Positions 6,499 through 32,565 of a stretch of 64,000 nt of DNA are shown here, one piece after another. The translations under genes were made by a program, and so were the position numbers. The stretch covers positions 320,045 to 384,044 of the forward strand of contig NZ_CBDBNY010000004.1 in assembly GCF_965208055.1 (NCBI RefSeq). Reading direction: 5' to 3'. Source of the DNA: Candidatus Palauibacter sp. Its GTDB lineage: Bacteria; Gemmatimonadota; Gemmatimonadetes; Palauibacterales; Palauibacteraceae. The notes below the pieces were generated by a model. That model saw only the letters and a program-made list of their open reading frames with translations. It was not told the origin of the DNA and made no database searches. Each line of letters opens with the position of its first letter. Position 1 is the stretch's first letter.

Positions 6499-8757
6499 GT
6501 GACTGGCGCGTCTCGAAAAAGGCTGACCATGGTGACAAGGCGTCTGGCCGGTCTCATCACGGCCGTATTGGCAATGGCGATTGGTGCCATCGGCTTGTCC
6601 GCGCAGGTTGAGCATGCGGGCGAGATCGAGGGCGTCGTGCGCGCGGCCGACTCCGACGAGCCTCTCGCCGGCGCGGTGGTCTCCATCGCTGCGTCTGGGG
6701 GCCGGGCGGTCTCGCATGGCGACGGCACATTCCACCTTGCCGTGCCGGGCCTGCGCATCTACACGGTGCGCGTCGAACGCCTGGGCTACCGTACGGTCAC
6801 GCTGGAAGTGGATGCGTCGGCGGAAGAGATCGTGGTCGTGGAGATGGAAGCCAATCCCATCTCCCTGCCGGACCTCGTGGTCACGGGATCCGTGGTCGCG
6901 CGCGCGGCGAACGAAGTGTTGCGCCCAACCAGCGTATTCGCTGGGGAGGAGCTTCAGCGTCGCCTGGCCGGGACCCTGGCGGAGACGCTAGCCTCCGAGC
7001 CGGGACTGGCGGTGAGCAGCATGGGGCCGGGCTCGGCGCACCCGGTGATCCGGGGGCTCAGCGGAGACCGCATCCTGATGCTCGAGGACGGAGAACGGGT
7101 CGGCGACGAATTTGCGAGCGGTCCAGACCACGCCACGGCGCTCGACGCATCGTCGGCGCGCCGCGTCGAGGTCATCCGCGGACCGGGTGCGATTCTGTAC
7201 GGAAGCAACGCCCTGGGGGGCGTCATCAACGTCGTCCGCGACGACGTGCCCCCATCGGTGCCGCACCACCTGACGGGCGCGCTGACGGGTGCGTTCACTC
7301 TTCAGGGACAGAGCGTCAGCAACGCCGTGGGCGGAAGCCTGAATCTCACGCAGCGCCTGACGAGTCACATTCCCGTTCGGCTTGAACTCTCGCGTCGCAG
7401 CAGCGGCGATCTGACGACCCCGGTCGGACTCCTGCAGAACACGAACACGGATATCCGGGAGGTTTCCGGCGGAACATCGTGGGTGGACGACTGGGGCCAT
7501 GCCGGCGCGACCTTCCGCTACTACGGCAACGACTACGGCATCCCCGGCGGCTTCGTGGGAGGTCACGAGGCCGGGGTTCGCGTCGAGATGCAGCGCACGG
7601 CGGCCAGGTTGCGCGGTGTGCTCCGGCCTCCCGGGGCCTTCGAGAGCATCGAGATCGACGCGGGGCACACCTGGTACGAGCACAGGGAGATCGAACCCCC
7701 GGACATTCTGGGCACGCTCTACGAGCGCCAGACGGTGAGCGGCGAGATCCTGGCCCGCCACGGCGGCTGGGGCCCCGTTTCTTCGGGGGCGATGGGGACG
7801 CGGGCTTCCTGGGAGGACTTCGGGTTCGGAGGCGCGCTCTTCACGCCGAACTCCACGCAGACCTCGCTCGCCGTATTCGCGCTGGAGGAGGTCGATCTGA
7901 ATCCGATACGCCTGGAGGCGGGCCTCCGCTACGACTGGGTACGCGTGCGGCCCGACCGGGAGGACCCCTCATCCGACATCGGCCACATTCGCGCGAGGTC
8001 GTTCGGTGCGGCATCCGGGTCCCTGGGGGCTTTGGCAAAGCTCACGCGGAGCTTCACGGTGGGCGCTTCCGTCGCACGGGCCTTCCGCACGCCCAGCGTC
8101 AACGAACTGTTCTCGGAAGGTCCTCATCTGGCCGCCTACGCCTTCGAGGTTGGGAACCCGTCGCTCGAGACGGAGCGCGGGACCGGCATCGACCTGTTCG
8201 TCCGGATCACCGGCGACCGGCTGAACGCCGAGGTGACGTGGTTCCACAACGCCATCGCGGACTACGTTTTCCCGCTCGAAACCGGAGAGCTGAGCCGCGT
8301 GCGGCTGCCGATCTTCCAGTTCCAGGGCGAAGACGCGGTGCTCACCGGATTCGAGAGCGCGCTCGAGTGGGCGCCGATCGGGGATCTGACCGTGGAGGCG
8401 GTGGCTTCGTACGTCCAGGGCAGGATCAAGGCGACGGACGAACCGCTTCCCCTGATCCCGCCGCTGCAGGCGCGCTTCGCGGTTGGCTACGCGCCTCGCG
8501 ACTGGTTCGTCGAAGCCGAAACCCGGGTTGCGGCCCGCCAGGACCGGACGGGACCGTTCGAGACCGCAACGGATGGATATGCTGTTTTGGATCTCGCCGC
8601 CGGAGTACGGATCACGTTCATGGGGCGGCTGAACGTGATCACGCTGCGGGGGGAGAACCTTGGCAACGCCGTATACAGAAATCACTTGTCGCGCGTGAAG
8701 GAGATCATGCCCGAAGCGGGCAGGTCCATCAGCGTGGCATATCGCGTCGTCTTCTAG
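6499..8757 (+). CDS. TonB-dependent outer membrane receptor with an N-terminal carboxypeptidase-regulatory-like domain
   Basis: Signal peptide. CarbopepD_reg-like stretch (GVVRAADSDEPLAGAVVSI...YTVRVERLGYRTVTLEV). Plug domain (PGLAVSSMGPGSAHPVIRGLSGDRILMLEDGERV). Long beta-barrel with C-terminal aromatic ...AYRVVF. Alternative ATG start at 6529. Confidence 0.9.
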   Translation: MTGASRKRLTMVTRRLAGLITAVLAMAIGAIGLSAQVEHAGEIEGVVRAADSDEPLAGAVVSIAASGGRAVSHGDGTFHLAVPGLRIYTVRVERLGYRTVTLEVDASAEEIVVVEMEANPISLPDLVVTGSVVARAANEVLRPTSVFAGEELQRRLAGTLAETLASEPGLAVSSMGPGSAHPVIRGLSGDRILMLEDGERVGDEFASGPDHATALDASSARRVEVIRGPGAILYGSNALGGVINVVRDDVPPSVPHHLTGALTGAFTLQGQSVSNAVGGSLNLTQRLTSHIPVRLELSRRSSGDLTTPVGLLQNTNTDIREVSGGTSWVDDWGHAGATFRYYGNDYGIPGGFVGGHEAGVRVEMQRTAARLRGVLRPPGAFESIEIDAGHTWYEHREIEPPDILGTLYERQTVSGEILARHGGWGPVSSGAMGTRASWEDFGFGGALFTPNSTQTSLAVFALEEVDLNPIRLEAGLRYDWVRVRPDREDPSSDIGHIRARSFGAASGSLGALAKLTRSFTVGASVARAFRTPSVNELFSEGPHLAAYAFEVGNPSLETERGTGIDLFVRITGDRLNAEVTWFHNAIADYVFPLETGELSRVRLPIFQFQGEDAVLTGFESALEWAPIGDLTVEAVASYVQGRIKATDEPLPLIPPLQARFAVGYAPRDWFVEAETRVAARQDRTGPFETATDGYAVLDLAAGVRITFMGRLNVITLRGENLGNAVYRNHLSRVKEIMPEAGRSISVAYRVVF

Positions 8758-21186: not shown

Positions 21187-21366
21187 GACGGTGGAGAGGT
21201 CGCAACCCTCCTCGGAAGGAGGACTTTGGCATGCGCAGGGTCCCCCGTCGAGGCACGCGGTTCTCTGGCGGTCTCTGGCGCCGCGTGGTTAGCTTCCTCC
21301 CCCCGCCGGGGATCGGTGTTCCCTCACGCGGTAAGCCACGCGATCAATACCGAAGGGGGATCCACG

Positions 21367-23856
21367 GTGCCCAGGAGACCTTGTCCGCCAACGTTCAGTG
21401 CCCCTGTCGCGTTAGCTTGTGGACTGGTCCTTTCGGGTTGTTCGGAGAGGGACCTCGACTCGCTGGGTCCCGCACCTCCTCCCAGCAATGGGGAAGTCTA
21501 CATGGACGGCTTCTCCCCGGGCCTTGAGTACCAGGCCTTCGGCGGCTCCAAGGTCGATGCGCTCGACATCGATGAGACCGGCGGACGCGCCGGAACGCCG
21601 AGCCTGAAGTTCACGATTCCGCTGCCGAACGATCCCGCCGGCAGCTACGCGGGCGGCGTATTCGTCGGCAGGCCGCCCCGCGACCTCTCCGGCTTCACGG
21701 CGCTCACTTTCTGGACCCGGGCGAGGCAGGCGGCCACGCTAAACACCGTGGGCTTCGGAAACGACAACAGCGGCAACTCGAGATTCCCCGCCGAAGCGGG
21801 GGATGTGACCGTGTCGACGACATGGAGCAAGGTCATTCTTCCCATTCCGGACCCCTCGAAACTGAGTAGCGAAGGTGGCCTGTTCTTCCTCGCCGAAGGG
21901 GCGGAGAACAACCAGGGCAACGAGATCTGGTTCGACGAAGTCCAGTTCGAGGATGTGCGTACGATCGCGAATCCGCGTCCCGCCATCGCGACCGCGACGG
22001 TCGCGGGCGAACCCGGGGGCACGGCCCGGGTGATGGGGACGCAGGTCACGTACGACGTGGGCGGATTCGACCGGGTCATGAAGGCGAGTCCGGCCTACTT
22101 CAGCTTCGGTTCCTCGGATCCGGGCGTCGTCACGGTCGACGCCGATGGCCAGATGACGTTCGTCGGGTTGGGCACGGCGACGGTCACCGCCTCCCTCGGT
22201 GGCGCGCAGGCGGACGGTGCGGTCACGGTCACCGTGGCGGCGTCGCCCGACGGCGGACCTCCCGCTCCGACGCGGTCCGCCGAGAACGTGATCTCACTCT
22301 TCAGCGACGCGTACGACGACGTCACCGTGGACACCTGGTCGGCCGAATGGGACCAGGCCGATGCCGAGGACGTCCAGTTCGCGGGCGACAACGTCAAGAA
22401 GTATTCGAATCTCAACTTCGCGGGAATCGAATTCATCTCCGCGCCGATCGATGCCTCGGCGATGAGCCACTTACACTTCGATTTGTGGACCGGCGATGAA
22501 ACGGCTCCGCCGGCAGCTTTCCGGGTGAAGCTCGTAGACTTCGGCCCCAATGGCGCCTTCGGCGGGGACGACGACAGCGAGCACGAAATCGCCCTGACTG
22601 CGGAATCGGGTCTGGCCTCCCGAACGTGGGTGAGTTTCGACGTGCCGCTGACGGACTTCGCGGGCCTCGCGGCCACATCCAGCCTGGCGCAGCTCATCAT
22701 CTCGGGCGACCCGAATACGGTCTATCTTGACAACATCTACTTCTGGGGTGAGGGGATGCCACCTCCGCCGCCTCCTCCCCCACCGGCGCCGATGGAGCCA
22801 TCGGAACCGGCGCCCACGCCGGAGCAGGATGCCGGAGACGTGATCTCGCTGTTCAGCGACGCGTACGAGGATGTGGCCGTAGAGACCTGGTCGGCGGAGT
22901 GGGACCAGGCCGACGTGGAGGACGTCCAGGTTGCGGGCGACAACATGAAGAAATACACCAATCTGGTCTTTGCCGGCGTGACGTTCACGTCGGCGCCGGT
23001 CGATGCCTCGGGAATGACGCACTTCCACGTGGATGCGTGGACGCCCGACCCGACGGCGGAGCCGGCCGCGCTGCGGCTGAAGCTGGTCGACTTCGGTCCG
23101 AACGGGGTCCACGACGGCGGGGGAGACGACAGCGAGCACGAGGTCTCGCTCACGGCGGCCTCGACCCCGGCGCTCGCGACCGGGATGTGGCTGAGCTACG
23201 ACCTTGCGTTCGAGGAACTGTCAGGGCTCGCGGGCAGGACGAGCTTGGCGCAGTTCATCATCTCCGGCGACCCGAACACGTTGTTCGTCGACAACGTCTA
23301 CTTCTACGGGGAGAGCGCACCGGCGCCGACCGAGCCGCCAATAGCCGCGCCGACACCGGCTGCGGCCGCGGCCGACGTGATTTCGCTGTTCAGCGACGCG
23401 TACGAAGACGTGACGGTGGATACCTGGTCTGCGGACTGGGACCAGGGAGACGTCGCGGATGTCGAGATCGACGGGAACGCGGCGAAAATGTACTCCAACG
23501 TCGTTTTCGTCGGCGTGGAGTTCACCTCGGCGACGGTCGACGCCTCGGAAATGACCCACTTTCACATCGACCTCTGGACCGCGGACGAGACCGCCGATCC
23601 GGCGGCGTTCAGGGTGAAGCTCGTTGACTTCGGCGCAAACGGCGTGCACGACGGCGGGGGCGATGACAGCGAGCACGAATTGTCGCTGACGGCGGCCTCG
23701 GATCCGTCCCTCGCTTCCGGAGTCTGGCTCAGCTACGACGTCTCCCTGTCGGACTTCTCCGGTCTCGCGGAGACGGGCCATCTGGCGCAGCTCATCTTTT
23801 CGGGCGATCTCGGCACGTTCTGGATCGATAACGTCTACTTACGACGCGACCAGTGA
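21367..23856 (+). CDS. Surface lipoprotein with a BIG2-like domain and three ~180-aa tandem repeats (putative beta-glucan-binding modules)
   Basis: GTG start with lipobox LVLSGC. BIG2-like stretch (VTYDVGGF...SSDPGVVTVDADGQMTFVGLGTATVTA). Three repeats each contain ISLFSDAYDDV.VDTWSAEWDQADVEDVQ.AGDN.KKY.NL.FAG..F.SAPVDAS.M.H.H.D.WT.D, then FR.KLVDFGPNG....DDSEHE..LTA, then LAQLIISGDPNT...DN.YF.GE. Confidence 0.7.
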   Translation: MPRRPCPPTFSAPVALACGLVLSGCSERDLDSLGPAPPPSNGEVYMDGFSPGLEYQAFGGSKVDALDIDETGGRAGTPSLKFTIPLPNDPAGSYAGGVFVGRPPRDLSGFTALTFWTRARQAATLNTVGFGNDNSGNSRFPAEAGDVTVSTTWSKVILPIPDPSKLSSEGGLFFLAEGAENNQGNEIWFDEVQFEDVRTIANPRPAIATATVAGEPGGTARVMGTQVTYDVGGFDRVMKASPAYFSFGSSDPGVVTVDADGQMTFVGLGTATVTASLGGAQADGAVTVTVAASPDGGPPAPTRSAENVISLFSDAYDDVTVDTWSAEWDQADAEDVQFAGDNVKKYSNLNFAGIEFISAPIDASAMSHLHFDLWTGDETAPPAAFRVKLVDFGPNGAFGGDDDSEHEIALTAESGLASRTWVSFDVPLTDFAGLAATSSLAQLIISGDPNTVYLDNIYFWGEGMPPPPPPPPPAPMEPSEPAPTPEQDAGDVISLFSDAYEDVAVETWSAEWDQADVEDVQVAGDNMKKYTNLVFAGVTFTSAPVDASGMTHFHVDAWTPDPTAEPAALRLKLVDFGPNGVHDGGGDDSEHEVSLTAASTPALATGMWLSYDLAFEELSGLAGRTSLAQFIISGDPNTLFVDNVYFYGESAPAPTEPPIAAPTPAAAAADVISLFSDAYEDVTVDTWSADWDQGDVADVEIDGNAAKMYSNVVFVGVEFTSATVDASEMTHFHIDLWTADETADPAAFRVKLVDFGANGVHDGGGDDSEHELSLTAASDPSLASGVWLSYDVSLSDFSGLAETGHLAQLIFSGDLGTFWIDNVYLRRDQ
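22283..23853 (+). repeat. Three in-frame tandem coding repeats (~540-555 bp period) inside the surface lipoprotein gene
   Basis: Repeat starts near 22283 (gagaacgtgatctcactcttcagcgacgcgtacgacgac), 22838 (gacgtgatctcgctgttcagcgacgcgtacgaggat) and 23374 (gacgtgatttcgctgttcagcgacgcgtacgaagac). Pairwise aa identity is ~55-70%. Confidence 0.8.
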
Positions 23857-23909
23857 ACGGCGGGCACGCGCCGCCGCGGTTCCGACTGATCGTGAAGGTC
23901 TGTTCTCTA

Positions 23910-24707
23910 ATGGGCCCCCTGGCGGCTCTCGTCATCATCGCGGCGGCGTGCGGCGGCGAGGGTGAACCCACGGCCCCGAGTCGGGCGCAGCTGATCTGGG
24001 AGGACGAATTCGATGGGCCGGCCGGCCAGCTGCCGGATCCGTCGCGCTGGACGTTCGACATCGGCACCGACTGGGGGAACCGGCAACTGGAGTTCGACAC
24101 GGACCGTCCCGAGAACGTCTCGCTCGACGGAAACGGGAACCTGGCCATCACGGCGCGCCGCGAGGCGTTCAGCGGCAGCCAGTTCACCTCCGGCCGGATC
24201 AAGACCCAGGGGCTGTTCGAGCAGGCATACGGACGCTTCGAGGCCCGAATCGACCTCCCCTCCGGGCGGGGCATCTGGCCCGCCTTCTGGCTGTTGGGCG
24301 CCGACATCGACGCGGTCGGCTGGCCGGAGTGCGGCGAGATCGACGTCATGGAATTCCGCGGTCAGGAACCGTCCATCGTGCACGGCAGCCTGCACGGGCC
24401 GGGCTACTCGGCCGGCAACGCCGTGACGGCGCGGTACACGCTGAACAACGACCGCTTCGACACGGGTTTTCACACCTTCGCCGTCGAGTGGACTGAAGAC
24501 CGGATCGAGTGGTTCGTGGACGGAGAGCGCTACCAGTCGATCGGGCGTGACGAAGTGCCCGGGCGGTGGGCGTACGATCATCCTTTTTTCGTCATCCTCA
24601 ACGTCGCGGTGGGTGGCGGTTTCGTCGGCCCGCCGGGTGAGAGCACGGCCTTCCCGCAGACGATGCTTGTCGATTGGGTGCGAGTGTACGGTATCGACGA
24701 CTCGTGA
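23910..24707 (+). CDS. Glycoside hydrolase family 16 laminarinase (endo-beta-1,3-glucanase) lipoprotein
   Basis: Lipobox IIAAACGG. GH16 catalytic motif GEIDVME (ExDxxE). Also WEDEFDG and WPAFWLLG. Confidence 0.9.
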   Translation: MGPLAALVIIAAACGGEGEPTAPSRAQLIWEDEFDGPAGQLPDPSRWTFDIGTDWGNRQLEFDTDRPENVSLDGNGNLAITARREAFSGSQFTSGRIKTQGLFEQAYGRFEARIDLPSGRGIWPAFWLLGADIDAVGWPECGEIDVMEFRGQEPSIVHGSLHGPGYSAGNAVTARYTLNNDRFDTGFHTFAVEWTEDRIEWFVDGERYQSIGRDEVPGRWAYDHPFFVILNVAVGGGFVGPPGESTAFPQTMLVDWVRVYGIDDS

Positions 24708-26767
24708 CCCACCGCACGGCCCCTGAAGACCGGATCTCCTTCCCGCACAAGATCGCCTACGGGGTCGGCGGCTTCGTAAACAACCTGCTCGCACAGGGCA
24801 TCGGCGGCATGACCGTCGTACTCACGCTGGCCCTCGGCATGGATTTCCGGCTCGTGGGCCTGCTCGGCATGCTGCCGAGGTTCTTCGATGCGATCACCGA
24901 CCCACTCGTCGGTTTCATCTCCGACCGGTCGCGTTCCCGCTGGGGCCGGCGCCGACCGTTCCTTTTCGTCGGGGCCATCGCCTCGGGGGTCATCTTCGCG
25001 CTCCTGTGGCAGATGCCTGCGCCCACGCAGTTCCGGCTGAAGTTGGTGGACTACGGCGCGGACGGGGTGTACAGCGGCGGCGTCACCGGCGAGCCGGTCA
25101 GCATATTCGAGGCCATCGGGGAGTCGCTGCGCGACATCGTGACCGTTGAAGTCATGGACGATGTCGAGGACGAGGTCACGATCCTTCCCCCGACGCTCGT
25201 CACCGGTGCCTGGGTCGGCATCGACGTGCCGCTCTCCGACTTCGACGAACTCACCACGCGCGAGCACCTGTCCCAGATCCTGATTTCGGGCGACCTCACC
25301 GAAGTGTACGTCGACAACGTGTATCTCTACCGGACGGACGACACGACGAGGATCGCGACGTCGGGGGAGGACCGGGAGGGCTTGGCGGCGCCCGACGCGC
25401 CAGCGCGGCTGCCCGCGGTCCCGGCAGAGGATGTGATTTCGTTCTTCAGCGACGCGTATGACGACGTTGGGGTGGATTTCTGGTCCGCCGACTGGGACGA
25501 GGCCGATGTGGCGGACGCCCGGGCCGCCGGCGACGACGTCAAGCACTACACGAACCTCAGGTTCGCCGGCATCGACTTCGGCGAGCAGCCCGTGGACGCG
25601 AGCGCGATGACGCACGTACACATGGACATCTGGACCCCGGAGACCACGGGCGAGGGCCGGAGCCAGGCGTACTATTTCTGGTACTTCCTGGTCGGCTCGC
25701 TGATCTTCTTCCTCGCCTACACCATCTTCGCCACGCCCTGGGTCGCGCTGGGGTACGAACTTACGCCCGACTTCCACGAGCGCACACGGCTGATGGGCGT
25801 GCAGAACTTCGTCGGCAACGTCGCCTTCGTCATGGCGCCCTGGTTCCTCGTCGTGATGACGAATCCGGCGTGGTTCCGGAACCAGATGGCCGGAGCGAGG
25901 TTCCTGGCGCTCGCCATCTGCGTCACGGTAATCCTGCTCGGAGTGCTGCCGGCGATTTTCCTCCGCGAACGAGTGCCCGGGGCGGCTGGAGACCAGGAGC
26001 AGAGTAGCGGCCGGGAGGCCGTGGGCGAGTTCTTCGGAGGCCTCTGGCAGACGGTCAGGACCGGCCCCTTCCTTCTGCTTTGCATCGCGACTTTCCTGAT
26101 CTTCAACAGCTTCATCATGATTTCGGCGTTCCAGTTCTGGGTGTTCGTGTATTACGTGTCCGGCGGCAACGTCGCGGATGGGGCGTCGCTCGCCGGACTC
26201 GTCGGCACGCTCGGCATCGCAGGCGGATTCGCGGTGATCGCGATCGTGACCTGGCTGGGCACGAAGATCGGTAAGCGGAACGCCTTCTTCGTCTCCACCG
26301 GGATCTCGATGTTCGGCTATGCGCTGAAGTGGTTCTGCTACCACCCCGAGTATCCGATGCTCGCCCTGCTTCCGGCTCCCTTCCTGGCCTTCGGGCTGGG
26401 CGGCTTGTTCACGCTGATGGGATCCATGATCGCGGACGTGGTGGACCTCGATGAACTAAGCACGGGCGAGCGGCGCGAGGGGATGTTCGGATCGGTGTAC
26501 TGGTGGGTCGTAAAGGTGGGGCAGAGCATCGCGCTGGGCGCGGGAGGCTTCCTGCTCGCCTCGACGGGACTCGACATCGACCTCGGCGCCAACCAGGCCG
26601 CGCGGACCATCACCTTGCTACGCGTCTACGACGCTGTCGTCCCTCTCGTCGCATCCGCGATCGCGATCCTCGCGATCTACAAGTACCCGATCACTGAGAC
26701 GACGGCTCTGAAGGTGCGGGCCGAACTGGAGCAGCGGAGAGGTGGCGGCGCGGAAGCCACCGCCTAG
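24704..26767 (+). CDS. GPH-family (MelB-like) glycoside:cation symporter with a ~200-aa in-frame insertion homologous to the neighbouring surface-protein repeat
   Basis: GPH loop 2-3 motif DPLVGFISDRSRSRWGRRRPF and a MelB-like TM core. Residues ~120-325 (nt ~25030-25650) read QFRLKLVDYGADG...LSQILISGDLTEVYVDNVYLY + linker + DVISFFSDAYDDVGVDFWSADWDEADV...DASAMTHVHMDIWTPE. This is a circularly permuted copy of the repeat unit of gene 21367-23856. The insertion falls between TM3 and TM4. Confidence 0.8.
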   Translation: MTHRTAPEDRISFPHKIAYGVGGFVNNLLAQGIGGMTVVLTLALGMDFRLVGLLGMLPRFFDAITDPLVGFISDRSRSRWGRRRPFLFVGAIASGVIFALLWQMPAPTQFRLKLVDYGADGVYSGGVTGEPVSIFEAIGESLRDIVTVEVMDDVEDEVTILPPTLVTGAWVGIDVPLSDFDELTTREHLSQILISGDLTEVYVDNVYLYRTDDTTRIATSGEDREGLAAPDAPARLPAVPAEDVISFFSDAYDDVGVDFWSADWDEADVADARAAGDDVKHYTNLRFAGIDFGEQPVDASAMTHVHMDIWTPETTGEGRSQAYYFWYFLVGSLIFFLAYTIFATPWVALGYELTPDFHERTRLMGVQNFVGNVAFVMAPWFLVVMTNPAWFRNQMAGARFLALAICVTVILLGVLPAIFLRERVPGAAGDQEQSSGREAVGEFFGGLWQTVRTGPFLLLCIATFLIFNSFIMISAFQFWVFVYYVSGGNVADGASLAGLVGTLGIAGGFAVIAIVTWLGTKIGKRNAFFVSTGISMFGYALKWFCYHPEYPMLALLPAPFLAFGLGGLFTLMGSMIADVVDLDELSTGERREGMFGSVYWWVVKVGQSIALGAGGFLLASTGLDIDLGANQAARTITLLRVYDAVVPLVASAIAILAIYKYPITETTALKVRAELEQRRGGGAEATA
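25030..25650 (+). repeat. Fourth, circularly permuted copy of the glycan-binding repeat module, embedded in the transporter gene
   Basis: C-terminal half of a repeat at 25030-25330, N-terminal half at 25430-25650. Both clearly align with the repeats at 22283-23853. Confidence 0.75.
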
Positions 26768-28608
26768 CCCGTTTCTTTTCCCAGCCGTGCACTGAACTCG
26801 AAGTCCGTCCTTAGTCCGTAGCCCACGGGGAACAGCGGCTCGGCGGGCTCTCCCCGGGCGACATCGTTCGCGGGCCAGGCATGTGCGAGCCGGCCCCGAA
26901 AGTCGTGGTCGCCGAACAACACCTGGGCGACGCCGGCCCCCTCGGAGCCCGGCAGCCATGCGGCCACGAACGCGTCCGCCGCCTCCAGTTCCTCCGTGAC
27001 GACCAGCGGCCGCCCGGAGACCAGCACGGCCACGACCGGGAGATCTCGCGCTCTCAGCGAACGAATGGTGGCGAGATCCTCGGGGTGCAGCCGCGACAGC
27101 CGCAGGGTGTCGCCGTAGGGGCGGAGAAGGCCGGGCCCCGGTGCGGGGGCCTGGGCCTCGTCCACGCTCGGAGTCTCCGGAGGGCTTCCAGTCCAGTCTC
27201 GGATGTCGCCCATGCCCTCGGCGTAAGGCTTCTCCCCAATCACGACGATGGCCGCTTCAAGATGTCCGTCGTCCTCCGCCCCATCGCTCTCGCCGAACAG
27301 GTGCGCGCGCGGTGCGATCTGCCTGATGCCCTCCCACACGGATGCGCCCCCCTCGATCCGGTCGTTCCCCCGTACGCCCTGCCATTCGACTGTGAAGCCC
27401 CCACACAGCGCCCCCCGGTCATGCGCGATGCGCCCCGCGACGAGTATCCGCGCGTCACGGTCGAGCGGAAGGACATTCCCTTCATTCTTCAGCAACACCA
27501 GCGACTTTCGTACGGCCTCCCTCGCCACGTTGCGGTGGTCCGCTGACCCGAAGCTGGCGTGGTTCGACCACTTGCGGGCGGCTGGACGCGGCTGGTCGAA
27601 GAGCCCGCAGGCCTCCTTCACGGCGAGGATCCGCCCCACCGCATCATCGATGCGCGCTTCCTCGACGTTTCCGGCCTTCACCTGTCTCACGACTTCCGAG
27701 ATGAAGCGCTGCCATTGCGCCGGAACCATGAAGAGGTCGATCCCCGCGTTGACCGACCTCGCGACGGCCTCGCCAAAATCGTCCGAGATGGCGAAGATGC
27801 CGTTCCAGTCCGACACGACGAGCCCGGAGAAGCCCAGCTCGCCCTTGAGCACCTCCGTGATGAGATACCGGTGCTCATGACAGAGAGTCCCGTTCCAGCT
27901 GCTGAGCGAGACCATGACCGCGAGTGCGCCGACCTCCAGCGCCGGACCATATGGAGACACGTGCGTTCTCCGCAGCTCCGCCTCCTCCGCCAGGGTCTCC
28001 CCCTGATCCACGCCGTCCATCGTGCCGCCGTCGCCGACCCAGTGCTTCGGACAAGCGAGGACTCCGCCGGCGCCGAGACCTGCCTGCAGACCCCGTACGA
28101 TCCGGGGAGCGTATTCGGCGACCAGATCCGGTACTTCGGCGAAGCTCTCGTAGGTTCGGCCCCAGCGGCAGTCACCGGCGACGGCCAGCGTGGGCGCCAG
28201 GTTCCAGTCCAGCCCGGTCGCCAGTACCTCGCGGGCGGTCACGCGGGCGACGCGTTCCACGAGTGCCGGGTCGTGGGCCGCGCCGAGCCCGATATTGTGT
28301 GGGAAGACGGTGGCGCCGAGCACATTGTTGTGCCCGTGGATGGCGTCTACCGCGTACAGGAGGGGGATCCCGGGCTGCCCGTCCGAGCCTTCCGCGGAGG
28401 CCGCCCAGTAGGCGTCGTTCATCGCCACCCAGTCGGCCGGGCGGTTCCGGCCGGGGAACGAGCCGCCTCCGCTGAGCACCGAACCCACGCCGAAGTCCCG
28501 CACCTGTTCCGGCGTGATGTGCAGCCTCTCGGCCTGCACCATCTGCGCCGCCTTGCGGTGGAGGCTCAGCCGGGAGAGCAGGCCCGCCATCCTGGGTGAT
28601 GGCTTCAT
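26764..28608 (-). CDS. Glycoside hydrolase family 3 beta-glucosidase (BglX-like)
   Basis: GH3 motifs GFSGLVVSDW (nucleophile Asp region), KHWVGDGG, and a C-terminal alpha/beta sandwich domain. Stop overlaps the transporter stop region (convergent genes). Confidence 0.9.
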   Translation of the reverse strand: MKPSPRMAGLLSRLSLHRKAAQMVQAERLHITPEQVRDFGVGSVLSGGGSFPGRNRPADWVAMNDAYWAASAEGSDGQPGIPLLYAVDAIHGHNNVLGATVFPHNIGLGAAHDPALVERVARVTAREVLATGLDWNLAPTLAVAGDCRWGRTYESFAEVPDLVAEYAPRIVRGLQAGLGAGGVLACPKHWVGDGGTMDGVDQGETLAEEAELRRTHVSPYGPALEVGALAVMVSLSSWNGTLCHEHRYLITEVLKGELGFSGLVVSDWNGIFAISDDFGEAVARSVNAGIDLFMVPAQWQRFISEVVRQVKAGNVEEARIDDAVGRILAVKEACGLFDQPRPAARKWSNHASFGSADHRNVAREAVRKSLVLLKNEGNVLPLDRDARILVAGRIAHDRGALCGGFTVEWQGVRGNDRIEGGASVWEGIRQIAPRAHLFGESDGAEDDGHLEAAIVVIGEKPYAEGMGDIRDWTGSPPETPSVDEAQAPAPGPGLLRPYGDTLRLSRLHPEDLATIRSLRARDLPVVAVLVSGRPLVVTEELEAADAFVAAWLPGSEGAGVAQVLFGDHDFRGRLAHAWPANDVARGEPAEPLFPVGYGLRTDFEFSARLGKETG

Positions 28609-31905: not shown

Positions 31906-32565
31906 TCAGCGGGGCGGGCCGATCCCCGCGGAGAGCGTCACCGCGCTGGCCGAATAGCCGTAGTCGAGCAGGACATCGGGAATCTCCCGCGTCCACTCGG
32001 TCACCGAGCGCGAGTAGCCGAGGCGCACATCGACCAGCCAACCCCTGTCGAGCAGCAACCCGAGCCCGATCGTCGCCGGCAGGCGGGCGCGCTGCTCTCG
32101 CCGCTCTCCCCGTTCTCCGTTCTCCGGGTTGACGCCGCTCGTCGCGAATTCGCTCCACATCCGACGGATCCCGCCGAACACATAGCCCTGCGTCGAGTTG
32201 CCCCCGGCACCGAGTCCGAGGAGTACGTTGACCCCGACTCCGAACCGGTCGTGGAGGTCCCACTCGCCGGGCCACACATCGTGCGGTTCGCCGTTCGGCG
32301 TGGGTTCGATCGTCCCCTCGATCTTTCCCCGGCCGGCAAGCACTCCCTCGAATTCCAGGCCCGCGAGCAGTCCCCCGAGGACCCGCGTGCGGAGCCCGAT
32401 GGAGGGGTTGATCGCGAAGGTCGGACCCGAGGCCGCCGTGGCGCTCTCGCTCGACCCGCCGCCCGCCGTCACGCGCTTGGAGTGTTCCGCGGAGAGCCAG
32501 CCGGCCTCGGGCGCCAGCCGAAGGAACATCTCGGACTGGGCGCGGACCGACGGCGCGGTCAGCAT
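31906..32565 (-). CDS. Putative small outer-membrane beta-barrel protein
   Basis: Alternating Gly/aromatic beta-strand pattern and a C-terminal aromatic-rich end. The frame is open upstream with a basic/hydrophobic signal-like stretch (RRRRRDRAIFASVIRLAGPATLAVCVSM), so the true start is probably a non-ATG codon upstream of 32565. Confidence 0.35.
   Translation of the reverse strand: MLTAPSVRAQSEMFLRLAPEAGWLSAEHSKRVTAGGGSSESATAASGPTFAINPSIGLRTRVLGGLLAGLEFEGVLAGRGKIEGTIEPTPNGEPHDVWPGEWDLHDRFGVGVNVLLGLGAGGNSTQGYVFGGIRRMWSEFATSGVNPENGERGERREQRARLPATIGLGLLLDRGWLVDVRLGYSRSVTEWTREIPDVLLDYGYSASAVTLSAGIGPPR

Follow-up and report, generated by a model that had tools for sequence, protein, structure and literature searches.

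Tandem repeats of a Gemmatimonadota lipoprotein as candidate carbohydrate-binding modules of an unnamed family, and a circularly permuted copy in the neighbouring sugar symporter

A stretch of 64,000 nucleotides (nt) from Candidatus Palauibacter sp. (Gemmatimonadota; RefSeq assembly GCF_965208055.1, contig NZ_CBDBNY010000004.1, positions 320,045 to 384,044 of the forward strand), hereafter called the window, contains the gene for a lipoprotein of 829 amino acids (aa) that ends in three tandem repeats. This gene is followed by genes for a glycoside hydrolase family 16 (GH16) enzyme, a GPH-family sugar symporter, a GH3 enzyme and a secreted 1063-aa protein (Table 1). An earlier note on this DNA, made from the letters alone, had described three tandem repeats with a period of about 540-555 bp and had proposed them as a candidate new family of beta-glucan-binding modules. 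Here, we describe the repeats, their relation to known carbohydrate-binding modules (CBMs), the gene cassette to which they belong, and a circularly permuted copy of the module inside the symporter, which was absent from the earlier note.

Table 1. Features of the repeat lipoprotein gene and of the cassette downstream of it; positions are those of the window.
Feature	Position	Strand	Evidence
Signal peptide with lipobox L-S-G-C at its end (Cys25 at 21439-21441)	21367..21441	+	direct reading
N-terminal domain of ~155 aa, no family assigned	21490..21957	+	no Pfam match in the window protein
Ig-like (Big-like / Big_2-like) spacer domain	21958..22245	+	PF22359 E 5e-5, 23.9 bits (cut-off 27 bits); PF02368 E 0.01
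Repeat 1, beta-sandwich module of ~160 aa	22279..22749	+	family HMM 1-159, 250.6 bits, E 4e-76
Repeat 2	22831..23313	+	family HMM 1-160, 249.5 bits, E 9e-76
Repeat 3, C-terminal end of the protein; stop codon 23854-23856	23368..23850	+	family HMM 1-160, 247.0 bits, E 6e-75
GH16 endo-beta-1,3-glucanase, laminarinase type, own lipobox IAAAC	23853..24707	+	Pfam GH16 PF00722 E 5e-27
GPH-family (MFS_2) sugar:cation symporter, 687 aa	24704..26767	+	PF13347 E 1e-60 in two stretches
One circularly permuted module copy, inserted as ~210 aa between TM3 and TM4 of the symporter	25010..25663	+	family HMM 77-160, E 3e-20, then 1-77, E 1e-30
GH3 beta-glucosidase, no obvious signal peptide	26764..28608	-	Pfam GH3 N-terminal domain E 4e-71, C-terminal domain E 2e-27
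Secreted 1063-aa protein: N-terminal GH-A TIM barrel and C-terminal domain of ~590 aa	28634..31825	-	Pfam GH2_C E 9e-11

A family hidden Markov model (HMM) was built from 20 diverse members of the module family, and all three repeats match it from end to end with 247-251 bits. The three repeats are thereby confirmed, and the start coordinates given for them before lie within 4-7 nt of the HMM starts. The motif ISLFSDAY begins at nt 22291, 22843 and 23380 and the motif DDSEHE at nt 22570, 23125 and 23662; the repeat periods are 552 and 537 nt, in agreement with the earlier estimate. Pairwise identities between the repeats are 63-67% at the amino acid level and 70-74% at the nucleotide level. 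The folded unit comprises about 160 aa, and the period of about 180 aa consists of this unit and a Pro/Ala-rich linker of 18-27 aa. The period of the repeats is above the 500-nt limit of Tandem Repeats Finder, which accordingly did not list them. The motifs that had been pointed out in the three repeats proved to be conserved throughout the family: among the 20 sequences W20 and W24 of the W..W motif are each kept in at least 90%, D98, D99, E101, H102 and E103 of the DDSEHE motif are each kept in at least 85%, and D151-N152 of the YxDNxYF motif is invariant. The aromatic residues Y12, W20, W24, W70 and W117 and the acidic residues D87, D98, D99, E101, E103 and D151 are considered as candidate ligand or metal contacts.

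Sequence searches did not place the module in a named family. A single repeat had no Pfam match at E≤10, models for CBMs, PKD and cadherin domains included, and no match among PDB sequences. Likewise, 20 diverse repeats gave no meaningful Pfam match at E≤1, the whole repeat protein had no match in NCBIfam, and the complete set of PDB sequences, when searched with a profile of the 20 sequences, contained just two matches at E≤10, both of them spurious and to kinases. Since no such Pfam matches were found, membership of the repeats in the PKD or cadherin families was rejected. The same thresholds apply to CBM11 (PF03425), for which neither the repeats of the window nor the 20 diverse repeats gave a match; some multi-repeat homologues total 33 bits for this model, and such homologues now and then weakly cross the Pfam thresholds of CBM_11, CBM30, SGBP_B_XBD and ChiC. 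The statement in the earlier note that the repeats belong to no recognised CBM family thus holds for Pfam, NCBIfam and PDB. We use the term new CBM family in precisely this sense, i.e. for a family that is unnamed in these three resources and distinct from the module of PDB entry 8qx6 discussed below, a usage that leaves room for a numbered CBM family lacking both a Pfam model and a structure.

Structure prediction and a fold search, both of which had been suggested before, brought the module close to CBMs. An AlphaFold2 model of one repeat, based on the 20-sequence alignment, is a nine-strand beta-sandwich with a predicted local distance difference test score (pLDDT) of 93 and a predicted template modelling score (pTM) of 0.88. 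When this model was compared with the PDB using Foldseek, the 50 best matches were almost all CBMs, and the nearest solved folds are those of glucan-binding CBMs. The best match was CBM11 with a beta-1,3-1,4 tetrasaccharide (6r3m, 1v0a; E 1.6e-6, TM-score 0.61-0.63). Further matches were to CBM8, CBM30, CBM29, CBM6 (one of them from a marine laminarinase), CBM22, CBM16, CBM28 and CBM27, and to the unclassified N-terminal module of the GH50 agarase 4BQ2/4BQ3. The module therefore has the same beta-sandwich fold as CBM11 of Clostridium thermocellum Lic26A-Cel5E and as CBM30, CBM8, CBM29 and CBM22; moreover, CBM11 binds beta-glucan and a few repeats of homologues pass the Pfam thresholds of CBM_11 or CBM30. 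However, the identity to CBM11 is 14-15% with a root-mean-square deviation (rmsd) of 4.5-5 Å, the repeats of the window are not recognised by the CBM_11 model, and the module carries a signature of its own, consisting of the W..W loop, VDFGxDG...DDSEHE and YxDNxYF. The CBM folds and the occasional CBM scores in Pfam imply that the module belongs to the beta-jelly-roll superfamily and to none of its named families. The proposal of a new family had been made to depend on the absence of a strong match to a known CBM, PKD or cadherin family and on the presence of a beta-sandwich, and on both points the outcome was in its favour.

The family is large. More than 2,171 homologues of the whole protein were found at E≤1e-5 among 8,000 candidates scored, the top one being a 100%-identical hypothetical protein from Candidatus Palauibacter sp. 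(P0002), and the named relatives belong to Gemmatimonadota, Zixibacteria, Saprospiraceae and other Bacteroidota, Melioribacteraceae and Cloacimonetes. Each of the 120 best homologues has between 3 and 6 module copies. When 1.84 billion representatives were searched exhaustively with the profile, 3,140 clusters, defined at 50% identity, passed E≤1e-3 and 989 passed E≤1e-30; a single protein contains as many as 10 module copies. Pfam architectures were determined for 41 diverse representatives that were picked for having much non-repeat sequence. A C-terminal sorting domain of the type IX secretion system (T9SS) is present in 16 of them, which marks these as secreted or surface proteins. GH16 is present in 6 of the 41, and no other GH family belongs to the 25 most frequent Pfam families shown; Big_2, PKD, fn3 and BACON domains also co-occur with the module. 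One such fusion is a zixibacterial 949-aa enzyme (L004:14276-17122) with GH16 at aa 85-279, a Big_2-like domain and two C-terminal module copies. Of the three properties that characterise CBM families in CAZy, an autonomous fold and an attachment to carbohydrate-active enzymes (CAZymes) were thus found for the module, the third being demonstrated binding by a member.

The presence of a GH16 enzyme and a symporter downstream of the repeat protein, as read before from the sequence, was confirmed by Pfam. Against the PDB, the GH16 protein is closest to characterised endo-beta-1,3-glucanases or laminarinases (2hyk with E 1.8e-77, and also 3atg, 3azx, 3iln and 4crq), and the catalytic motif EIDVME can be read in it; both the profile match and the closest relatives thus identify it as an enzyme of the laminarinase type. 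Start and stop codons overlap in the sequence GTGA at 23853-23856 (repeat gene and GH16 gene) and at 24704-24707 (GH16 and symporter genes), indicating that the repeat protein, the GH16 enzyme and the symporter are translationally coupled in one operon. The GH3 beta-glucosidase is presumably cytoplasmic, because it has no obvious signal peptide. In the 1063-aa protein, the TIM barrel weakly matches GH158, a family of beta-1,3-glucanases (PDB 9oro, E 0.008); its C-terminal domain has no Pfam or PDB match and is 56-61% identical among Gemmatimonadota, Saprospiraceae and Melioribacteraceae.

The cassette recurs in other genomes. The same set of genes (repeat protein, GH16, GPH symporter, GH3 and GH158-like protein) is found in two other Gemmatimonadota genomes, the sister locus examined being that of P0001, which is 84% identical to the window protein. 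In Saprospiraceae, Melioribacteraceae and Zixibacteria, there are variants of the cassette that additionally contain GH17, GH30, a Y_Y_Y regulator or ROK regulators; GH30 is present in two syntenic loci. Altogether, the cassette is spread over four phyla (Gemmatimonadota, Zixibacteria, Ignavibacteriota and that of the Saprospiraceae). The GH158-like protein is likewise syntenic with the repeat protein in four phyla, with counterparts at L001:17854-21039, L002:6852-9986, L003:6370-9528 and L006:12946-16125. No SusC/SusD pair was found in the window cassette or in five related loci, and no SusD among the long open reading frames (ORFs) of the window that were scanned. The single TonB-dependent receptor among these ORFs (6499-8757, plus strand) lies 12.6 kb upstream of the cassette behind unrelated genes, so that the earlier description of a locus without a SusC/SusD pair is correct.

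The symporter belongs to the GPH group of the major facilitator superfamily (MFS), as indicated by its profile match and a predicted 12-helix MFS fold; in addition to MFS_2 it matches TIGR00792 (E 4e-46, 157.7 bits, which is below the cut-off of 231 bits). Pfam MFS_2 leaves aa ~106-327 of its ORF unexplained. Within this region, an insert in the loop between transmembrane helices 3 and 4 (TM3 and TM4) matches first positions 77-161 (E 1e-18) and then positions 1-77 (E 4.5e-35) of the repeat HMM. The C-terminal half of the module lies at 25019-25336 and the N-terminal half at 25424-25654, and the two are joined by a linker of about 30 aa that resembles those between the repeats. The insert therefore corresponds to exactly one repeat period that begins midway through a unit and stops at the equivalent place in the following one, and the breakpoint falls in the beta4-beta5 loop of the module model. 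With its two halves put back into the native order, the insert can be aligned over its full length with lipoprotein repeats at about 50% identity (E ~1e-60).

Both halves, in the same order and with the same breakpoint, are present in all of the 120 closest homologues of the transporter (61-100% identity, 632-759 aa), and those of them that carry a taxon name are all from Gemmatimonadota. In the other three phyla, the syntenic loci encode transporters that lack the insert and share 47-59% identity with the symporter over the remaining sequence. In these proteins there is nothing between the LWQxP motif and TM4, which indicates a clean insertion of about 211 aa without loss of transporter sequence. 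An assembly chimera or a recent recombination artefact was rejected as an explanation, since 120 clusters, with identities as low as 61%, share the breakpoint; the identity of just about 54% to the local repeats likewise speaks against an artefact. Residues Y12, K40, Y42, D58, M62, W70, L85-V86-D87, G89, D98-D99, E101, E103, W117 and N152 are each conserved in 96-100% of the inserts, D151 in 93% and W20 in 82%.

In an AlphaFold2 model of the whole transporter (pLDDT 81, pTM 0.79), helix 84-101 and helix 321-353 flank all nine strands of the module, which follow each other in permuted order, and the permuted insert is thus predicted to fold as a complete sandwich. In a Foldseek search with this model, MFSD2A and MelB cover the membrane part with TM-scores over the target (TMt) of 0.74-0.85, and the insert is left uncovered by all solved GPH or MFS structures (TM-score over the query, TMq, 0.50-0.58). 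The insert follows TM3 and the conserved motif-A (D-R-x-x-x-W-G-R-R-R-P). In MFS proteins, the loop after motif-A and TM3 is located on the periplasmic side, and this standard topology would place the insert in the periplasm. Between the VDYGADG loop and the DDVEDE strand, the transporter copy has an extra segment of about 30 aa (aa 123-153; window 25070-25162) that is not found in the lipoprotein repeats and is conserved in the transporter family with the consensus GxLExxGxxLxGIVTVE.

Taken together, these data suggest that the repeats are probably CBMs of an unnamed family, carried by a lipid-anchored glycan-capture protein that belongs to a SusC/SusD-free laminarin operon. Sugar binding is supported by the fusion of the module to GH16, by its synteny with GH16, GH17, GH30, GH3 and MFS genes in four phyla, and by the laminarinase type of the adjacent GH16; a specificity for beta-1,3-glucan is suggested by the laminarinase type of the fused and adjacent GH16 enzymes and by the other glycosidases of the loci discussed below. 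The earlier idea of a new family of beta-glucan-binding modules is thus backed computationally by fold, GH16 fusion and synteny, binding as such being a prediction. The lipobox, and the T9SS or dockerin tags of relatives, point to surface exposure of the lipoprotein.

On this basis, a pathway can be proposed. The lipoprotein, which is probably located on the outer membrane, at the cell surface, would hold laminarin multivalently through its three modules and perhaps also through its N-terminal domain, while the co-translated GH16 lipoprotein would cut the chains to oligosaccharides. These would enter the periplasm by a route for which the conserved GH158-like 1063-aa protein is a candidate, as it may represent the missing outer-membrane or periplasmic step. 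The GPH symporter would then import the oligosaccharides in a cation-coupled manner, with the permuted module in the periplasmic TM3-TM4 loop capturing and concentrating them at the transporter mouth, and the cytoplasmic GH3 enzyme would finally release glucose.

With regard to the origin of the symporter, we tentatively propose that exactly one period of a tandem CBM array, cut in mid-repeat at either end, was copied into the TM3-TM4 loop, and that Gemmatimonadota thereby gave a secondary-active sugar symporter a periplasmic glycan-capture domain of its own. The result would be a functional permutant acting in a SusC/D-independent laminarin uptake that is shared by several phyla of the FCB group, with the GH158-like protein perhaps serving as the outer-membrane step. 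We regard this scenario as a serious possibility, albeit one on which we would not yet rely. If it is correct, the transporter is, as far as the literature searched goes, the first MFS carrier with an embedded CBM, as that literature held no precedent for a CBM or a periplasmic beta-sandwich built into an MFS transporter.

Several observations weigh against these interpretations. No characterised member of the module family was found in Pfam, NCBIfam, PDB or the literature searched. The nearest folds have TM-scores of about 0.6 and rmsd values of 4.4-5 Å, so that the fold alone leaves function and ligand unfixed. One homologue from Gemmatimonadales (P0023) is encoded in a peptidase neighbourhood without a glycosidase cluster. 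We also know of no characterisation of lipoprotein surface export in Gemmatimonadota. With respect to the symporter, W24 is kept in just 61% of the inserts, and the extra segment, which is modelled with low confidence and contains a short helix, interrupts the domain; the ligand site of the insert may therefore differ from that of the repeats.

The modules could also bind a carbohydrate other than beta-1,3-glucan, such as mixed-linkage beta-1,3-1,4-glucan, the beta-1,6-branches of a glucan or another algal glycan. This is unlikely. CBM11, the best fold match, indeed binds mixed-linkage glucan, CBM30, CBM29 and CBM8 bind beta-1,4-glucans, and GH30, the family found in two of the syntenic loci, often comprises beta-1,6-glucanases. 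However, the GH16 enzymes that are fused or adjacent to the modules are of the laminarinase type, and beta-1,3 linkages are also suggested by the presence of GH17 and of the GH158-like protein in the loci. It is quite improbable that the repeats are structural or adhesive spacers of the Ig or PKD kind, which would project other parts of the protein or adhere cells or particles and would have no specific sugar site. Such a role would suit tandem beta-sandwiches on Pro-rich linkers, their co-occurrence with Big_2, PKD, fn3 and BACON domains, and the homologue outside any glycosidase cluster. Nevertheless, conservation centres on aromatic and acidic residues rather than on core positions alone, the nearest folds are CBMs and not Ig or PKD domains, fusion to GH16 is recurrent, and a spacer would have no obvious use inside a sugar transporter. 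A cohesin-like function, in which homo- or heterotypic contacts between modules without sugar binding would assemble the lipoprotein, the GH16 enzyme and the transporter loop into a trans-envelope complex, is highly improbable: the same module is indeed shared by an outer lipoprotein, enzymes and the loop of an inner-membrane transporter, and some zixibacterial homologues have dockerin-like N-termini (PF00404 in P0053 and P0085; P0010), but no cohesin is among the top 50 fold matches, the modules come in 2-10 copies without an obvious partner, and a lipoprotein with Ser at position +2 and its T9SS-tagged relatives are unlikely to meet an inner-membrane loop.

The interpretation of the repeats as glucan-capturing CBMs has a close parallel in Christiangramia forsetii, whose lipoprotein Cf-SGBP consists of Ig-like domains and four tandem modules, termed CBMxx, for which laminarin binding has been shown experimentally; the structure of the founder (Cf-SGBP-CBMxx_IV) is PDB 8qx6 (Zuhlke et al., bioRxiv 10.1101/2023.09.07.556657). 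Entry 8qx6 was picked out in the PDB by means of a 22-aa peptide derived from primers in the supplement of that preprint, and queries derived from the primers had no matches to the C. forsetii gene in genome contigs, metagenome contigs or the protein database. Both proteins are lipoproteins with one or more N-terminal Ig-like domains followed by tandem beta-sandwich modules of about 160 aa. The Cf-SGBP gene adjoins a GH16_3 laminarinase gene in a laminarin locus, and CBMxx members, which we take to be the family later numbered CBM102, are also fused to GH16_3. The N-terminal module of the GH50 agarase is a remote fold relative of both families. On the other hand, our module profile misses 8qx6 at E≤10, although 8qx6 is in the PDB set searched, and 8qx6 is outside the 50 best Foldseek matches, the comparison being an indirect one by absence from match lists. 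Neither sequence similarity nor the closest structures thus assign the window module to CBMxx. The N-terminal strand reads DFALPINF in CBMxx and VISLFSDAY in the window module, and Cf-SGBP works with a SusC/D pair in Bacteroidota, whereas the window cassette is free of SusC/D. At the resolution of these sequence and model comparisons, the window module is a family analogous to CBMxx yet separate from it.

A likeness to SusE/F-type surface proteins had also been suggested, with the restriction that SusC/D is lacking, and in this form the analogy holds. The SusE/SusF- and SGBP-B-type lipoproteins of polysaccharide utilisation loci in Bacteroidota, such as BfSGBP-B (PDB 7KV7; Tamura et al., PMC7974029), are lipid-anchored, non-catalytic and composed of several beta-sandwich domains. 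Their genes lie beside that of the endo-glycanase of the locus, and they are thought to hold polysaccharide at the surface. In contrast, the window protein, which does have a lipobox, is encoded without an adjacent SusC/SusD pair and in another phylum, and apart from weak scores for PF18329 (SGBP_B_XBD) in one homologue there is no sequence similarity to SGBP-B.

Transporters with built-in extracytoplasmic domains include ATP-binding cassette importers with fused substrate-binding domains (GlnPQ, OpuA) and the MFS proteins PepT1/2 and SV2. The permuted symporter resembles them in having an extracytoplasmic soluble domain covalently within the transporter at the substrate entrance. It differs in being a bacterial secondary symporter of the GPH/MFS_2 type with a CBM-like sandwich in loop 3-4, and in that this insert was cut out of a tandem array in circularly permuted form. 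The lipoprotein represents a new sequence family, but proteins of its kind are well known; what is unusual about the locus is the permuted copy in the symporter.

Laminarin represents one of the largest fluxes of the marine carbon cycle, and to our knowledge its uptake by bacteria is known almost solely through the SusC/D paradigm of Bacteroidota. With the present locus, a recurrent cassette lacking SusC/D is defined, at the core of which stands a large and wholly unannotated family of binding modules (>3,000 clusters). Naming and characterising the module would improve the annotation of CAZymes in abundant phyla associated with sediments and sponges. If the proposal of a capture symporter is true, the repeat family is a new CBM family, the permuted module provides a natural and datable case of circular permutation from a tandem array, and a secondary transporter with a tethered substrate-capture domain would constitute a new design principle. 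Marine Gemmatimonadota have already been surveyed and found to possess extracellular GH16_3 enzymes and to be predicted users of laminarin (PMC11316326); the proteins described here do not appear in the passages of that paper that were consulted.

Lastly, some features of the lipoprotein and its surroundings deserve mention. The repeat protein was read from the GTG at 21367 within the ORF 21226-23856 (plus strand); this likely start is located 7 nt 3' of AAGGGGGA. Its N-terminus is VPRRPCPPTFSAPVALACGLVLSGC followed by SERD (...ALACGLVLSGC, then SERD), so that the lipobox noted before is indeed present as VLSGC with Cys25. A signal peptide and a lipobox of the pattern [LVI][ASTVI][GAS]C, by which bacterial lipoproteins are recognised, are thus both found in the protein, and a strict regular expression detected a lipobox-like motif in 76 of 120 homologues. 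The domain following the signal peptide is possibly another CBM4/9-like beta-sandwich, as the equivalent region of the homologues P0024 and P0041 has weak CBM_4_9 scores (E 0.0018 and 0.018). The next domain had been called BIG2-like: the Big-like model PF22359 does match, albeit weakly and below its cut-off, and the match to Big_2 itself is marginal.

The TonB-dependent receptor upstream of the cassette consists of CarboxypepD_reg, Plug and barrel domains and has no SusD partner, and between it and the cassette are genes for a pyrroloquinoline quinone (PQQ) dehydrogenase, a peptidase, an extracytoplasmic function (ECF) sigma factor and transporters. At the other end, an ORF for 219 aa without a Pfam match (31906-32565, minus strand) adjoins the gene for the 1063-aa protein on its 5' side and on the same strand. 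Its position is kept in the sister genome, where small ORFs without Pfam matches lie at L001:21254-21913 and 21955-22386, the latter encoding 143 aa in L001. In the Saprospiraceae locus, an extra 1147-aa protein without a Pfam match (L002:13861-17304) is encoded between GH16 and GH30, and in the zixibacterial locus a second repeat protein of 765 aa with three copies (L004:7432-9729) lies upstream of a six-copy one. The Zixibacteria homologues P0010, P0021 and P0044 have dockerin-like N-terminal repeats in place of the lipobox (e.g. DISDLVYLVDFMFTGGPPP); PF00404 is precomputed for P0053 and P0085, and the dockerin-like sequence is visible in P0010. These N-termini hint at a cellulosome-like attachment of the same module family.

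An acidic motif, C-S-E-R-D-L-D-S-L-G-P-A-P, starts at the lipobox Cys of the window protein. It resembles the surface-export signals of lipoproteins in Bacteroidota and, by analogy, might serve as a sorting signal. In the form C-x-R-[DE]-[LI]-[DE]-x-L-x-P-A-x-[FP]-P (window 21439-21480), the motif recurs across phyla at the N-termini of P0001-P0045. The NCBI model of the identical protein P0002 (784 aa) begins 45 aa later at an internal Met, thus leaving out the signal peptide and lipobox (window 21367-21501), both of which are present in the sister-genome homologues P0001, P0004 and P0025.

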